Part shown: positions 523 to 53,472 of the stretch, piece by piece
Layout of the letters: each line of letters begins with the position of its first letter
Numbering within the stretch: the first letter of the stretch is position 1
NCBI GenBank assembly: GCA_035549695.1
Contig: DASZQK010000003.1
Coordinates: 4,833-68,832, forward strand
Source of the DNA: Caulobacterales bacterium
Lineage (GTDB): Bacteria > Pseudomonadota > Alphaproteobacteria > Caulobacterales > Aquidulcibacteraceae
Direction: 5' to 3'
DNA: 64,000 nucleotides
The notes under the pieces: model-generated
The model's input: the letters and a program-made list of their open reading frames with translations, nothing else
What the model was told of the DNA's origin: nothing
The model's database searches: none
Program-made: the position numbers and the translations under genes

Positions 523-1874
523 GCGGAGGAGGCGTCAAGCCGCGCCTGCGCGGCTTCGAGGTCATGCAGCAGCCCCTTGAGTTCTTCCGCCGACGATTTC
601 TGCGCCTCGGCCAACAATGCGCGCGCTTCATCGATCATCGCAGCGGCGCTTTGCAACGCATCGCGCGCGGCGCCTTCGCCGGGCGGCGGGGCGCTGAAAT
701 AGGCGGGCGCGGCGCTGGTGCGGGCGGCGAGGTTCTCCTGCCGATAGAGCTGGATGGCGCTGGCGGCGGCCTCGTCTAGCGCGCGCCCCCGGGCGTCGAG
801 GCTCTGCATTTTGAGCGCGGCGGCGTCGAAGGCCTTGCTCATGGCCTCATACTCGGCGCGGGCCTTTTCGAGCCGCGTGGCGAGCGCCGCGCGCGCCGCT
901 TCGATCGGCGCCTCGAGTTCGAGCCGCGCCTCGGCGCGAAACTCCGACAGCGCCTCCTCCGCCTCGCGGGCGGCCCGGTCCATCTTGCCGTAATCAGGAT
1001 AGGGGTCGTCGAACTTCGAATAGCCCTTGAGCGCCGCGAACACCCACACGCCGGCTCCCAGCATCAGCAGGATCACGGCCTGAGGCGAATGCAGATGAAG
1101 CACGGACGACCAGAGCGAGGCCGTCGCGTCCGAGGAATCGTCCTGTGCTTCGGCCAACAGGTCGCGCCACGCCGCCGCGCCGCCATTGAGGATCACCGCC
1201 AACATCAACAAGAGCGCGAATGCGCCGCCGCCGCCGCACTTCACCAATCGGCTTCGGTGCTGCAAATACCGCAGCCCGACATAGCCGGCGAGAAAACCGA
1301 GCACGACGTTGGCTCCGGACAAACCGATCGCCGTGATCGCTCCGCCCAGCAAGCCGCGCGGATCGGACTCGGCGAACAAGGTGGCGCTGAATAACGATTC
1401 AAACAGCGCGGCCAGGAAGAGCAGACCTGCCTGCCATAGTGTGGAGGGAGGCGTCACGGCTTGGCGATGCAGCCGATGCGTCTCGCGGAACGCCTTGAGA
1501 TCCGCGCGGGCCTGACGCGCCCGGTCCGCCGCTGAGGACCAATCATGAGCGACCCGCCCTTCGACCTGCGCCAGCGCGAGGCGCGCTTCGATCGCCGGTC
1601 CGCTGAGATCGGGGCGCACGGGACCGAGCGCCCGCAGCCGCCGCTCGGCCTCGGCCTGCGCTTCGGCGCGGGCGCTTTCGACGCGGGTGCGTTCGGTCGC
1701 CACCGCCGCGGCGATCGCCTGTTCGGTCTCGGAATATGTCACGGCGTCATGAGCCGGCAGATTGCGAACGCCGTCTTCGCGCGCGCGCTTGCGCACGTTC
1801 AAGCGCCGCTCGAGCACAGCCGCGCTCAGCGCAAGATCGCCCTCGCGCTTGGACCTGCCTTGCCCGCCGTCCAT
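519..1874 (-). CDS. Hypothetical integral membrane protein, about 4 central TM helices flanked by long coiled coils
   Basis: ORF 519..2123; likely start MDGGQGRSK at 1874 because the extension overlaps the IMPase gene. Hydrophobic blocks (LLFLAALFESLFSATLF, GGAITAIGLSGANVVLGFLAGYVGL, AFALLLMLAVILNGG, AVILLMLGAGVWVFAAL) with A/E/R-rich helices on both sides. Confidence 0.8.
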   Translation of the reverse strand: MDGGQGRSKREGDLALSAAVLERRLNVRKRAREDGVRNLPAHDAVTYSETEQAIAAAVATERTRVESARAEAQAEAERRLRALGPVRPDLSGPAIEARLALAQVEGRVAHDWSSAADRARQARADLKAFRETHRLHRQAVTPPSTLWQAGLLFLAALFESLFSATLFAESDPRGLLGGAITAIGLSGANVVLGFLAGYVGLRYLQHRSRLVKCGGGGAFALLLMLAVILNGGAAAWRDLLAEAQDDSSDATASLWSSVLHLHSPQAVILLMLGAGVWVFAALKGYSKFDDPYPDYGKMDRAAREAEEALSEFRAEARLELEAPIEAARAALATRLEKARAEYEAMSKAFDAAALKMQSLDARGRALDEAAASAIQLYRQENLAARTSAAPAYFSAPPPGEGAARDALQSAAAMIDEARALLAEAQKSSAEELKGLLHDLEAAQARLDASSA

Positions 1875-11596: not shown

Positions 11597-12364
11597 ATGA
11601 GCGGTCAATTCGTGATCGCGCAAATTTCCGACATGCATGTGCGCGCTGGGCCGAACGCGGACGGGTTCGATCCCGCCGGCGACGTCGAACGAGCGCTGCA
11701 GCAAATCGAGGCGCTGGGCGCGGACGTCATCATCGCCACCGGCGATCTCGTCAATGACGCGCGGGCGGAGGAATATGCAGCTCTGGCGGAGGCGCTCGGC
11801 GGCGCGTCGGCGCCGCTCTTTCTCGTGCCCGGAAACCATGACAACCGCGACCGCTTGCGCGCGGCGTTTCCCGATCACGCTTACCTGCCGGAGCGCGGAC
11901 GGCTGTCCTACACGGTGGAGAATTTTCCGGTGCGGATTGTCGCGCTGGATCAGATTGTGCCCGGCGAAACCGGCGGCGATTTCAGCGAGGATTGCGCCCG
12001 TTGGCTCGACGAAACACTGCGCGCCGCGCCGTTCAGGCCGACCATGATCGCGCTGCACCACCCGCCGTTTCTCACCGGCGACCGCCTGCTTGATACGATC
12101 GGCCTCAAGCATTTCGACCGCTTCGCGGAGATAGTGAAGCGCAGTCCCCAGGTCGGGCTCGTGGTCTGCGGCCACCACCATCGCCCGGTGCTGGGGCGGG
12201 TCGCGCATGCGCCGGCCGTCATCGCGCCCTCGACGGCCTGGAGCTTCAGCCTCGCATTTCGCGAAGGTCAGCCTTTCGCCAGGAAGGAACCCGCATCAAA
12301 GGGATGGTGCTTGCACGTGTGGGCGCCCGAGAAGGGGTTTTCCACGCATTTCATGGCGCTTTGA
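11597..12364 (+). CDS. cpdA: CpdA/Icc-type cyclic-nucleotide phosphodiesterase (metallophosphoesterase)
   Basis: QISDMH, ATGDLV, VPGNHD, ALHHPP, CGHHHR. Confidence 0.88.
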
Positions 12365-12369
12365 GCGGC

Positions 12370-12453
12370 GAGCCGGACAGCAGTCGGGCCGGATCCGAGG
12401 GATCCGGCCCTTGCTGCGGTGGCGCCTGGGCGGGGGGAGTAGGTCGGCGCCAT
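12370..12453 (-). ncRNA. Candidate EcfG/sigmaT-dependent small RNA (two hairpins, C-rich loop); ends approximate
   Basis: Starts just downstream of a perfect GGAAC-N16-CGTT promoter; stem UGGCGCC/GGCGCCA (12452-12446 with 12426-12420) encloses loop GACCUACUCCCCCCGCCCA; second perfect 11-bp stem GGGCCGGATCC/GGATCCGGCCC at 12386..12410. Confidence 0.55.
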
Positions 12454-12459
12454 CCAAAG

Positions 12460-12484
12460 AACGCGCACCCCTTGGGGGGGTTCC
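12460..12484 (-). promoter_or_regulatory. EcfG/sigmaT-type general stress promoter
   Basis: Minus strand GGAAC (12484-12480)-N16-CGTT (12463-12460). Confidence 0.7.
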
Positions 12485-12545
12485 GAAAAAAATTGCGCGC
12501 GGCGTGGGCGCGTTTTCGCGGTATAGGCGAAGCCGGAGGAGCCTG

Positions 12546-13655
12546 ATGAAAACCAGAGCCGCGGTCGCGTTCGAAGCCAAGAAGCCGCTGGAAATCGTCG
12601 AGTTGGATCTCGATGGCCCGAAGGCCGGCGAGGTTATGGTTGAGATCAAGGCCACCGGCATTTGCCATACCGACGCCTACACGCTCGATGGTCTCGACAG
12701 CGAGGGCATCTTCCCGTCGATCCTGGGCCATGAAGGCGCCGGCGTGGTGCGCGAAGTCGGCGCGGGCGTGACCAGCGTGGCCGCCGGCGATCACGTCATT
12801 CCCCTCTACACGCCGGAATGTCGGCAGTGCAAAAGCTGCCTCTCGCGCAAGACAAATTTGTGCACCGCGATCCGCGCCACGCAGGGCAAGGGCCTCATGC
12901 CCGACGGAACCTCGCGCTTCTCGTATAAGGGCAAGCCGATCGCCCACTACATGGGCTGCTCGACGTTTTCGAATTTCACCGTGCTGCCGGAAATCGCCGT
13001 GGCGAAAATCCGCAAGGACGCGCCATTCGACAAAGCCTGCTATATCGGCTGCGGCGTGACGACCGGCGTTGGCGCCGTGGTCAATACCGCCAAAGTGACG
13101 CCCGGTGCGAATTGCATCGTCTTCGGCCTGGGCGGCATCGGCCTCAACGTCATTCAGGGTTTGAAGCTCGTCGGCGCCAACATGATCGTCGGCGTCGACA
13201 TCAATCCGGCGCGCGAAGAATGGGGCAAGCGCTTCGGCGCCACGCACTTCGTCAATCCGAAAAACGTCACCGGCGATCTCGTCGCGCATCTTGTCGAACT
13301 CACCGGCGGCGGCGCGGACTATACGTTTGACTGCACCGGCAATACGCAAGTGATGCGGCAGGCTTTGGAAGCCTGCCATCGCGGCTGGGGCGAGAGCATC
13401 ATCATCGGCGTCGCCGAAGCCGGCAAGGAAATCGCCACGCGCCCGTTCCAGCTGGTGACGGGCCGCGTGTGGAAAGGCACCGCGTTCGGCGGCGCGCGTG
13501 GGCGCACGGATGTGCCGCGCATCGTCGATTGGTACATGGACAAGAAAATCGAAATCGATCCGATGATCACCCACACGATGACGCTCGAACGCATCAATGA
13601 CGCATTCGATCTGATGCACGCCGGAGAGAGCATCCGCAGCGTGGTGGTCTATTGA
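12546..13655 (+). CDS. frmA: S-(hydroxymethyl)glutathione dehydrogenase / class III alcohol dehydrogenase
   Basis: [55 protein letters not shown]; RBS GGAGGA. Confidence 0.97.
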
Positions 13656-26866: not shown

Positions 26867-29040
26867 CGCGCCGGCTCCCCATAAACCACGCCGCGTCCAT
26901 CCGTGCCGACATACACGCGTCCGTAGATGCGTGGATCGGCGGCAATGCAGCGGAAACGGCGGCCATATTCGTGCGACTCGTCATTGATGCGCGTCCAGGT
27001 GCGGCCGACATCATCGGAACGGAATATCGCCCGCATCTGGCCTTGCCAGGCGATGGCGTAGAGCGCGGGGTAGTCGCGTCCCGGCGGCGGGGCGCCGAAC
27101 GCAAATCTCTCGACGCCGACGTCGCTGTCGATGTGGGCGAATGAACGACCGCCGTCGGTCGAGTGATACAGCCCGCTTCGCGACATGAACCAGAGGTCGC
27201 CGCTGCGATCCGGTGTGGCGATGAGCGGCCATTGCGCCTCGCGCCAGCCGGGACGGTCGCCAGTGATATCGTTGGGCAGACCTTGTGTGGCTTGGGCGCT
27301 GAACGTGGCGCCGCCGTCGCGGCTCAAAAGCACGCGGCGCCGCTCGAAATCCATCGCGTAGAAGACGCGCCCATTGACACGGTCGGCGATCGGATGCGCC
27401 TGCGTCGGCAAACCTTGAGCTTCGCGCCACGTTTGGCCGCGATCCCACGTCACGAGTGGCGTCGGCGCGGCGACGATAAAGGCTGCACCATCGGCCGATA
27501 CGACGATTGCCGCATCGCCGGGCGGGGACGGCGTCGCCAGCGGCGCCCAGTTGCGGCCATAATCGGTCGAATAGGCGAGCCGCGCGCCGTCGCGATCGTG
27601 GGGCACGCCGCTTCGCACCACGACATTTGGCGCAGCGCCCGCCACGTCGATCGTGTTGGTGTTGTTGAAGACGGGATTTGTGAATTGCAGGCGCGGGGAG
27701 ACGTCAAGGTCCTCGTGCGCAAAGCCGCCGATGTCGCCGAACCCGCTCAGCAGGTGGAATGGTCCGCCGCTTGGGCTGGCGATCGTGATGACGGCGGTCT
27801 CTTCGACGCCATTCACCCAAGGCCGCCACAGGCTTGGGCCGGCGAGGTCGTCGTGCGTGGCGTAGATGGTGGCGCCGGTCGTGTAGACGACGTGATTGGA
27901 GTCGAAGGGATCGATCGCAAGTCCGGCGATCCACCACCCGAAGCTCACGTCCTGCTCGCCCCAATGCAGGAACGGCGTGGCGCTGACGTCGCGTTGCGCT
28001 TGCGGGCGAATGTCGCGCCAAGTGCGTCCGGCGTCCGTGGAGCGCCAGATTGTGTCGCGCGGACCCCAGCGATTCATCGATGCGACCGTGAGCGTGCCTG
28101 GATGCCGGCGATCGAGAGCAAGGCCCATGAAGCCGCCTTCGACGCGATCCGGCGGCGTGACGTCGGTCCAGCGGCGGCGATGCGTGTCGTACTTGTAGAG
28201 CGCGCCGTCGCGCACGCCATTGGGTCCGATGCCGTCGCTGTAGGCAATATAGAGCATGGCGTCAGCGTCCATCTCCGCCTTGACGGGCAAGAGATCTGGG
28301 CGAGGCTCACCGGCGACCGGCCGCCACGTAAGGCCGGCGTCGGTCGAGACGAACACGTGCGCCGCGCCCGGATCGGCGACGCCCGCGTAGATCGTGCGCG
28401 AGCCCGCGTTTTGCGCGCTCGCAGGGTCGAATACGACAAAACTCACGCCGCCATGCGTTGGCTGTCCCGGTTCTGGAAGGCCGAGGCCGCGGATCGGAAA
28501 TGAATCGACGCGCGACCAATGCGCGCCGGAATCCGCGCTGCGCTGCAGCCCGTCATGGCGCGAGCCAAAATAGAGAATGGCGCTGTTGTTCGGGTCGATG
28601 GCGAGCCGTTCGCCCAGGCCGCGGCCGTCTTCATTGCCGCCCATGCGAAACGGGACGGGGAAGATCTCCCAATGCGCGCCGCGGTCGCGTGAACGCAAGA
28701 TGGCCGCCGCGTCGCGCCGATACATGCCAGCCGCGACGAAAACGGTGTCCGCATCCGCTGGATCGGCAACGACGCTCTCGGCGCCATAATAGTTGGATTG
28801 CGGCATCGCATCCTGCAGCGCGATCCAGCGCTGCGCCGTGTCATCCCAGCGATAGACGCCGCCAATGTCCGTGCGCGCATAGGCAAGGCCGCGTTCGGCG
28901 GTGCTGAAGACGACATTCGGCACGAAGCCGCCGCCGCCGACGCGCACGTCGCGCCACACATAGGTCTGCGCGTGCGAAACCGGCGCCGCGAACAATACGA
29001 TCAGTGCGCCAATCAGCGCGGGCCCAATCCAGCGGCGCAT
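26863..29040 (-). CDS. GH74 xyloglucanase
   Basis: Signal peptide then YVWRDVRVGGGGFV, YARTDIGG (catalytic D), GNEDGRGLGERL, GVEETA, SGFGDIGGF (second D), YVGTDGRG; start MRRWIG at 29040. Confidence 0.93.
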   Translation of the reverse strand: MRRWIGPALIGALIVLFAAPVSHAQTYVWRDVRVGGGGFVPNVVFSTAERGLAYARTDIGGVYRWDDTAQRWIALQDAMPQSNYYGAESVVADPADADTVFVAAGMYRRDAAAILRSRDRGAHWEIFPVPFRMGGNEDGRGLGERLAIDPNNSAILYFGSRHDGLQRSADSGAHWSRVDSFPIRGLGLPEPGQPTHGGVSFVVFDPASAQNAGSRTIYAGVADPGAAHVFVSTDAGLTWRPVAGEPRPDLLPVKAEMDADAMLYIAYSDGIGPNGVRDGALYKYDTHRRRWTDVTPPDRVEGGFMGLALDRRHPGTLTVASMNRWGPRDTIWRSTDAGRTWRDIRPQAQRDVSATPFLHWGEQDVSFGWWIAGLAIDPFDSNHVVYTTGATIYATHDDLAGPSLWRPWVNGVEETAVITIASPSGGPFHLLSGFGDIGGFAHEDLDVSPRLQFTNPVFNNTNTIDVAGAAPNVVVRSGVPHDRDGARLAYSTDYGRNWAPLATPSPPGDAAIVVSADGAAFIVAAPTPLVTWDRGQTWREAQGLPTQAHPIADRVNGRVFYAMDFERRRVLLSRDGGATFSAQATQGLPNDITGDRPGWREAQWPLIATPDRSGDLWFMSRSGLYHSTDGGRSFAHIDSDVGVERFAFGAPPPGRDYPALYAIAWQGQMRAIFRSDDVGRTWTRINDESHEYGRRFRCIAADPRIYGRVYVGTDGRGVVYGEPAR

Positions 29041-41341: not shown

Positions 41342-41366
41342 AACGGGTCCCGGGGTGCGAGGTTCC
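41342..41366 (-). promoter_or_regulatory. EcfG/sigmaT-type promoter of DUF3175 gene
   Basis: Minus strand GGAAC (41366-41362)-N16-CGTT (41345-41342), 27 nt before the ATG. Confidence 0.8.
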
Positions 41367-43314: not shown

Positions 43315-43352
43315 AACGTGCGCCGCAGGAACTAGTTCCGAACTGACTTGTT
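43315..43352. promoter_or_regulatory. Overlapping divergent EcfG/sigmaT-type promoters sharing a palindrome
   Basis: Palindrome GGAACTAGTTCC 43328..43339; minus GGAAC-N16-CGTT (43339..43315), plus GGAAC-N16-TGTT (43328..43352). Confidence 0.72.
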
Positions 43353-53447: not shown

Positions 53448-53472
53448 AACGTTCGCAGGCGCCGCATGTTCC
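53448..53472 (-). promoter_or_regulatory. EcfG/sigmaT-type promoter of phosphatase-wzc-GT2 unit
   Basis: Minus strand GGAAC (53472-53468)-N16-CGTT (53451-53448). Confidence 0.78.

Follow-up and report, generated by a model that had tools for sequence, protein, structure and literature searches.

A conserved candidate small RNA gene with a general-stress-type promoter beside a cpdA-like gene in Caulobacterales

The stretch of DNA analysed here (the window; 64,000 nt, contig C3:4833-68832) comes from a Caulobacterales genome of 3.25 Mb (66% GC, 67 contigs) and includes a 181-bp intergenic gap with a cpdA-like gene on one side and frmA on the other. A first-pass annotation had described in this gap a perfect GGAAC-N16-CGTT promoter on the minus strand, convergent on cpdA and divergent from frmA, and had attributed to it an unannotated small RNA (sRNA), either an analogue of the Caulobacter RNA GsrN or a new general-stress sRNA. 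The promoter is present and points into the gap, and the end of the cpdA-like gene and the start of frmA, both on the plus strand, agree with the orientations described (Table 1). Judged from its sequence and its distribution among relatives, the gap very probably holds an unannotated sRNA gene of ~80 bases with an EcfG-type (general-stress) promoter, present in at least 43 related Caulobacterales species.

The minimum free energy (MFE) fold of the minus-strand segment 12456..12365 (-50.2 kcal/mol; z = -4.06; 0 of 200 shuffles as stable) comprises two hairpins separated by a linker of 2 nt (2-3 nt when relatives are included), and returns exactly the 7-bp stem, exposed loop and extendable 11-bp stem that the annotation had listed. 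The first stem follows the -10 element after a discriminator of 8 nt and pairs UGGCGCC (12452-12446) with GGCGCCA (12426-12420), thereby exposing a 19-nt loop, GACCUACUCCCCCCGCCCA (12445-12427), with a tract of six cytosines (C6) at 12437-12432. The inner part of the second stem is a perfect 11-bp pairing of GGGCCGGAUCC (12410-12400) with GGAUCCGGCCC (12396-12386), extended by the outer strands GCAGCA/UGCUGU. In the window genome this 3' hairpin is followed by UGCUGUCC, which contains no clean U-run, whereas most relatives carry a proper U-run, CUGCUUUU, at the same place.

Table 1 Features of the candidate sRNA locus and its flanking genes (positions in the window).
Feature	Position	Strand	Basis or remark
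Predicted sRNA, ~80 nt	12372..12453	-	Start 12453 +/- 2 from promoter geometry; 3' end near 12377-12372 from hairpin
5' hairpin, 7-bp stem and 19-nt loop	12420..12452	-	MFE fold
Loop core ACUCCCCCCGCCC, six tandem C; presumed seed for G-rich RNA	12428..12440	-	Invariance; putative pairing role by analogy with GsrN (PMC5869019)
3' hairpin, outer 4-6 bp and inner 10-11 bp, loop CUC; presumed intrinsic terminator	12377..12417	-	MFE fold
A/T-rich block AATTTTTTT, probable UP-like element	12486..12494	-	Just 5' of -35; putative role
-35 element GGAAC, EcfG-type (ECF15) promoter	12480..12484	-	Motif match; conserved
Promoter spacer, 16 nt, CCCCCCAAGGGGTGCG	12464..12479	-	Length conserved, sequence free
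-10 element CGTT	12460..12463	-	Motif match; conserved
cpdA/SpdA-like cyclic-nucleotide phosphodiesterase gene	11597..12364	+	Flanking, outside the RNA; NCBIfam NF050112 and NF008359
frmA, S-(hydroxymethyl)glutathione dehydrogenase	12546..13655	+	Flanking context; TIGR02818, 601.8 bits, over cut-off

Conservation was assessed in 42 relatives' loci and, for the promoter, in an alignment of 43 sequences, one per species, from a Terricaulis/Vitreimonas-like genus. When compared with 40 relatives by BLASTn, the gap was matched in 20 of 24 genomes of the same genus and in 0 of 16 from other families, and the conserved segment ran from the -10 element and transcription start to just past the hairpin. 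A scan of GTDB species representatives for the exact core returned the 42 loci, in metagenome-assembled genomes labelled Terricaulis, Vitreimonas, Hyphomonadaceae or Caulobacterales, the exceptions being a few unspecific labels and one Candidatus Binatia, while a covariance model of the RNA (R1) gave one match per genome (78-106 bits) in 11 of 12 sampled genus genomes. Identity reaches 92% over the 72-nt transcribed core and 97% in the 5' hairpin; it is 36-38% in the terminator loop and 3' flank, and the neighbouring cpdA-like protein is ~50% identical in amino acids among the relatives. The loop core ACUCCCCCCGCCC is unchanged across the 42-species alignment and in all matches found independently of the pattern. 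Structure is retained as well, with 92% of cells paired in the 42-sequence alignment, versus 25-48% when the partners are slid, and 100% in the inner 3' stem. The covariance analysis that the annotation had proposed thus shows a maintained fold with two compensatory pairs, both in the 3' stem (G-C to C-G in three species, A-U to C-G in two). Most relatives have a 5' stem of 6 bp (GGCGCC/GGCGCC); in one, G-U replaces G-C there with pairing kept, and all 42 sequences of the alignment have identical helix 1 pairs. A coding frame is excluded by loop indels of 1-2 nt among relatives: as a small open reading frame (ORF) the candidate was rejected, the AUG at the predicted start being missing in most relatives (ACGGCGCC) and the loop indels breaking every frame.

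The promoter, taken as a motif, is found five times in the window against an expectation of 2.06 +/- 1.58 (8 of 100 shuffles reach five) and 64 times in the genome against ~43 expected from composition. Given this near-chance frequency, and given that terminator stems of the GGGCCGGATC type are frequent across the order and that the weak R1 matches are terminator-driven, the gap might contain no gene at all, the hairpin serving only to terminate cpdA and both the first stem and the GGAAC-N16-CGTT box being coincidental. We regard this as extremely improbable, because the -35 and -10 elements, their spacing and the distance to the first stem are constant in 43 species while the spacer itself drifts. 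Specifically, the -35 element is GGAAC in 39 species and GGATC in four, the spacer measures 16 nt in 40 and 17 nt in three with a mean pairwise identity of 35%, and the -10 element is NGTT in all 43 (CGTT in 30) and is followed after exactly 8 nt by the first stem in every one. Had promoter and loop varied among relatives, the annotation itself would have counted this against the gene; both are conserved. An A/T block also lies 5' of the -35 element in nearly all 43 species, ~9 nt nearer to it in the window genome and one relative (L056) than in most; of random genome positions, 0.3% have an 8/8 A/T block in the 30 nt upstream of them. The 97% identity of the 5' hairpin and the inversion of the promoter together with the RNA, described below, likewise speak against a chance arrangement, and the fold z-score and, above all, the phylogenetic footprint place the locus beyond chance.

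Proximity to cpdA raises a second alternative. The RNA adjoins the 3' end of the cpdA-like gene in 41 of the 42 relatives' loci (the other, L051, is cut off), and in the window genome its hairpin stands 12 nt from the cpdA stop codon without a U-run, so that it could be a cis-antisense RNA directed at the 3' end of the convergent cpdA-like mRNA, acting by read-through of a weak terminator or by transcriptional interference. Such a role is very improbable, as in six of the 42 species (L026, L036, L045, L046, L047 and L058) the whole cassette, with A/T block, promoter, RNA and terminator travelling together, is inverted relative to cpdA and therefore co-oriented with it, which leaves no antisense relation in these species, and the RNA is equally conserved there. 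In addition, most relatives possess the proper U-run, and the invariant part of the RNA is the loop rather than the region facing cpdA. The upstream neighbour is also variable, with frmA adjoining the sRNA here and in two relatives and lying 1.5-2 kb off in most. The inverted cassette shows that the RNA is an independent gene and not a mere terminator of cpdA, and inversion and variable neighbour together argue against an obligatory antisense role.

The sigma factor expected to read such a promoter is encoded in the genome. Contig C48 carries phyR, nepR, ecfG and a sensor kinase in the arrangement phyR <-> nepR-ecfG-histidine kinase, the NepR protein being recognised by PF18557 (47.9 bits). 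GGAAC-N17-CGTT precedes nepR, GGAAC-N16-CGTT precedes phyR, and three further EcfG boxes bring the number within 5 kb at this locus to five. Because the boxes precede nepR-ecfG and phyR, GGAAC/CGTT can be taken as a general-stress promoter in this host, and by its consensus the sRNA promoter probably belongs to EcfG as well. The sRNA itself lies away from the stress locus, on contig C3 as opposed to C48 (8.6-12.2 kb). One EcfG promoter situated after phyR (C48:8580, minus strand) was considered as a positional homologue of gsrN and discarded, since it drives a small entericidin-like lipoprotein ORF and no sRNA; the segment C48:8300-8580 (minus strand) consists of this EcfG-type promoter followed by a 58-aa ORF resembling entericidin-type lipoproteins (MKHRIKAPMLAAALVLAGLVPLAAC...).

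The closest functional comparison is GsrN of Caulobacter crescentus, whose gene has a GGAAC-N16-CGTT promoter dependent on sigma-T (locus as given by Tien et al. 2018, PMC5869019) and, like the candidate, is distant from the phyR-nepR-sigT locus. GsrN carries six tandem cytosines in its 5' loop, the pairing of this loop with the katG leader has been proven by compensatory mutations, and its function resides in the 5' part (PMC5869019). Its further hallmarks are processing to a stable 5' isoform, activation of katG and a phenotype in stress survival. The candidate belongs to the same order and shares with GsrN the EcfG/sigma-T promoter with its 16-nt spacer, an A-rich block upstream, a 5' stem-loop with at least six tandem cytosines followed by G, a 3' intrinsic-terminator hairpin, a single copy per genome and, by analogy, an expected action through pairing of the loop with G-rich mRNA leaders. 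It differs in being shorter (~80 versus ~106 nt), in its stem of 6-7 bp rather than 13 bp, in lacking both the hairpin inside the loop and the single-stranded linker of ~25 nt that is the second target-binding region of GsrN, in its loop sequence (ACUCCCCCCGCCC versus ACGCCCCCC(C)GACUUGAG), and in having a cpdA-like gene as fixed neighbour. Furthermore katG, the proven target of GsrN, has no complementary site in the window genome, which speaks against this gene as a target of the candidate.

Membership of the GsrN sequence family was tested directly. The Rfam search that the annotation had recommended gave no family at gathering score over the whole window, and at E <= 10 within 12200-12700 the GsrN family (RF01529, 'CC3552') was not among the matches, although the same model recognises two real GsrN loci at 113.3 and 97.4 bits. 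The Twister-sister (17.8 bits) and v-snoRNA-1 (15.3 bits) matches of that scan are far under their cut-offs and are attributed to chance. A covariance model built from 29 GsrN 5' domains (R2) and run over the window with filters off did not include the candidate locus among its 90 matches at E <= 10, and conversely R1 does not find GsrN loci. Among 201 Caulobacterales genomes, R2 identified exactly one copy in 36, all of them Caulobacteraceae, and none in the window's family; its matches elsewhere in the window's own genome, which reach 29.4 bits at most, lack a C-tract and are simple GC hairpins. BLASTn with GsrN matched 44 of the 201 genomes, with clear full-length matches in Caulobacteraceae alone and 13 matches in other families that are short fragments (E 6e-5 to 0.01). 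The discoverers of GsrN likewise found sequence homologues only in Caulobacteraceae and predicted functionally related RNAs elsewhere (PMC5869019). By sequence the candidate is thus an analogue of GsrN and not a member of its family, and the conserved EcfG-type promoter, the structure, the PhyR-NepR-EcfG system and the lack of an Rfam match all sit well with the original proposal of a GsrN analogue or new general-stress sRNA.

Whether the two RNAs nevertheless share an ancestor is a question of descent rather than function. The candidate could be a true GsrN orthologue, strongly diverged and shortened by loss of the inner hairpin, lower stem and linker, given that both occur in the same order behind the same type of promoter, with a comparable A-rich block 5' of the -35 element in canonical gsrN promoters. 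Their loop-proximal stems, GGCGGC/GCCGCC in GsrN and GGCGCC/GGCGCC in the candidate, differ by one flipped pair, and both loops begin with GAC and hold C6-7 followed by G. Their distributions are mutually exclusive at one copy per genome, with GsrN in Caulobacteraceae and the candidate only in its own genus, and other genera of the family have EcfG-promoter sRNAs with a CCCCCCGC loop core, one of which (L162) begins with UGCGAAG as GsrN does. On the other hand, RF01529 is silent here at E <= 10 while real GsrN genes give it 97-113 bits, R2 does not list the locus, R1 fails in the opposite direction, and the shared pieces are short and GC-rich, making convergence plausible. A sigma-70-driven, three-hairpin RNA of Caulobacteraceae moreover is, at 45.8 bits, a closer match to the 5' hairpin than GsrN is, so this hairpin may be a recurrent module instead of a lineage marker. 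Orthology is possible on this evidence, if somewhat doubtful.

Other RNAs with exposed cytosines provide further points of reference. Tien et al. 2018 predicted 'GsrN-like' sigma-EcfG sRNAs in the Rhizobiales species R. etli, S. meliloti, B. abortus, R. palustris and B. diazoefficiens (PMC5869019), a class that needs no sequence similarity to GsrN and is defined by an EcfG box close to consensus together with a C-rich 5' loop that is exposed, both of which are found here. Those candidates were picked near the stress locus and some have transcriptome support, unlike the present one, which is predicted from sequence and lies on another contig. A second comparison is with the Cuckoo/CcsR RNAs of Rhodobacterales and Rhizobiales. 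CcsR RNAs form tandem arrays behind a DUF1127 gene, with two C-rich hairpins each and RpoHI/HII promoters. The candidate resembles the Cuckoo/CcsR group in its C-rich apical loop (CCUCCUCCC-type in that group), its putative anti-Shine-Dalgarno character and its predicted induction by a stress sigma factor, and differs in being a single copy with one C-rich hairpin (loop CUCCCCCCGCCC), an EcfG-type box and no Rfam match.

Within its own genome the RNA remains single even when the search pattern is relaxed. Across 80 genomes of the family, a pattern combining the EcfG box with the C6 tract recovered the candidate and further genes with an EcfG promoter, C-loop and terminator, against 0-5 matches per genome for reversed-pattern controls (0-2 in all but one). 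These further sRNA-like genes, in five loci of the same genus (L177, L168, L173, L183 and L166) and two of other genera (L162 and L184), each near position 1500, combine a GGAAC-N16-17-CGTT promoter, a 5' hairpin whose loop is of the CCCCCCGC type and a terminator of the GAAAGCGGCCC type. Two or three EcfG C-loop RNAs are present in some genomes; the window's genome has only one.

Outside the genus, the only non-trivial R1 match (L107, 45.8 bits) is the three-hairpin RNA mentioned above; the remaining remote matches were dismissed as mostly generic GGGCCGGATC-type terminators, one (L111) being a tRNA T-arm plus terminator. The L107 RNA (1495-1680, minus strand; the same as L273, G136:C1:299189-299374) is ~150 nt long, belongs to a Caulobacteraceae genus and has three hairpins with CUCCCCCC-type loops, a housekeeping-type promoter (TTGACGG-N11-GCCACAAC), its own terminator and no EcfG box. 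It is conserved in at least 12 genomes of its genus, where it coexists with canonical GsrN, and corresponds to no Rfam family. Its third hairpin, CGGCGCC-AACCCUCCCCCCUCCUG-GGCGCCG, nearly equals the 5' hairpin of the candidate, from which it otherwise differs in its three C-loop hairpins, promoter and terminator. A GGCGCC-stemmed C-loop hairpin thus follows an EcfG promoter here, is present three times over after a housekeeping promoter there and has variants in additional EcfG-driven paralogues of sister genomes, which would fit an old superfamily of 'CCCCCCG-seed' stress sRNAs that spans the order, perhaps the class, and evolves by shuffling of a small hairpin module, with GsrN as one elaborate member and the ~80-nt form as the minimal functional unit. 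We consider so broad a scheme unlikely; within it, the near-total invariance of the candidate would hint at an additional partner besides mRNAs.

Taken with the GsrN precedent, these features suggest that the locus probably encodes an EcfG-driven, trans-acting sRNA whose loop pairs with G-rich mRNA sites, and which forms a new family by sequence within the known GsrN-like kind; that the RNA is transcribed, depends on EcfG, acts in trans and has such targets is what we infer. Under stress, phosphorylated PhyR would capture NepR and free sigma-EcfG, which would recognise GGAAC-N16-CGTT, probably aided by the A/T-rich UP-like block, and initiate near 12453. The RNA would fold into a short GC stem presenting the 19-nt loop with ACUCCCCCCGCCC, and the stable 3' hairpin directly after it would end the transcript. 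The loop could then pair with G-rich stretches in mRNAs, for example G-tracts in 5' leaders or extended Shine-Dalgarno sequences like GGGGGGAG, and change how these mRNAs are translated or how stable they are, in the manner of the C-rich 5' loop in Caulobacter GsrN.

Targets were sought by a seed scan with duplex energies in the window's own genome and by three spot checks, an approach that is very noisy at 66% GC. The pattern GGGGGGAG-N3-10-ATG occurs 2-12 times per genus genome compared with 0-5 for the reversed control (0-2 in 25 of 26 genomes), and this enrichment implies that G-rich ribosome-binding sites exist as potential partners. The genus-wide scan with this pattern returned only pairwise orthologous recurrences and many palindromes resembling repetitive extragenic palindromic (REP) elements. 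Two sites were rejected as targets: GGGGAGTAGGT before an acyltransferase gene on contig C22, which belongs to an accessory cluster found in ~4 relatives only and is not conserved as a site, and CGGGGGGAGTG at the start of a DUF5671-like gene, not conserved in eight orthologues. REP-like palindromes of the form CCCTCCCCC-GCAA-GGGGGGAGGG stand directly 5' of the nadB start in four genus genomes, including the window's (C1, minus strand) and relatives (L293, L294), with dispersed copies at other places; the G arm of these palindromes complements the sRNA loop. Of the 19 GGGGAGTA sites in the genome, five fall within the ~20-kb accessory cluster on contig C22 (minus strand, ~88-110 kb), which encodes an acyltransferase, an MMPL-type transporter and a FAD-dependent enzyme and in which several of these sites immediately precede a gene start; only ~4 relatives possess the cluster, and their copies of it do not preserve the sites.

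Several points weigh against a trans-acting, EcfG-driven sRNA. The promoter motif by itself is near chance frequency and not significant, and GGAAC/CGTT-like boxes are common to other extracytoplasmic function (ECF) sigma factors. Since no U-run follows the hairpin in the window genome, the 3' end is uncertain, and because the helix 1 pairs never vary, this helix offers no covariation support. Neither the own-genome scan nor the genus-wide GGGGGGAG scan found a conserved mRNA target: the katG leader of the window genome has no complementary G-tract or site, neither of the two best sites at translation starts in the own genome is kept in orthologues, and the G-rich hairpin before nadB, present in four genomes, is absent from most orthologues. 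Finally, near-invariance over the full 72 nt exceeds what seed pairing alone needs and leaves room for an additional partner.

These last observations could also be accommodated if the RNA were EcfG-driven and its main role were not seed pairing with mRNAs but the binding or titration of a protein or another RNA. The 92% identity of the core beside a neighbouring protein at ~50%, the invariance of helix 1 and most of helix 3 where compensatory changes would be tolerated, and the want of a conserved target would all agree with such a role. Nonetheless it appears improbable, as the most conserved single-stranded element is the C-rich apical loop, a classic seed design exemplified by GsrN (PMC5869019), and the target search was crude, covering the own genome with three spot checks. 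Nor is any candidate protein partner of C-rich loops known from bacteria.

Pairing through the loop is retained as the probable function, and the RNA is best described as ordinary in kind and a good-quality example. To our knowledge, a function has been established for no EcfG-dependent sRNA other than GsrN, and no published account of the candidate was found in the literature. The locus provides a strongly conserved C-loop case from a sister family within the order, pared down to one C-loop hairpin and a terminator, in soil and freshwater Terricaulis/Vitreimonas-like bacteria known mostly from metagenomes. If expressed, it would represent a minimal natural version of the GsrN design, allowing tests of the C-rich loop alone, would extend the general stress response of these bacteria by an RNA component and could be the starting point of a new Rfam family.

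Further observations concern the surroundings of the gene. The scores of the cpdA-like protein against NF050112 and NF008359 are both under the equivalog cut-offs. Directly 5' of the sRNA promoter lies a terminator-like hairpin, CGCGCCCACGCCGCGCG, followed by a T7 run (12496-12512, minus strand); on the other strand this is the frmA promoter region, and the AATTTTTTT A/T block doubles as the T-run of the hairpin at 12512-12496. Compared with most relatives, a 9-nt deletion in the window genome and L056 shifts the A/T block by about one helical turn toward the -35 element. The four other GGAAC-N16-18-CGTT matches in the window lie at 41342-41366, 43315-43339 and 53448-53472 on the minus strand and at 27969-27995 on the plus strand, and the one at 41366 has a T7 block upstream, as at the sRNA promoter.

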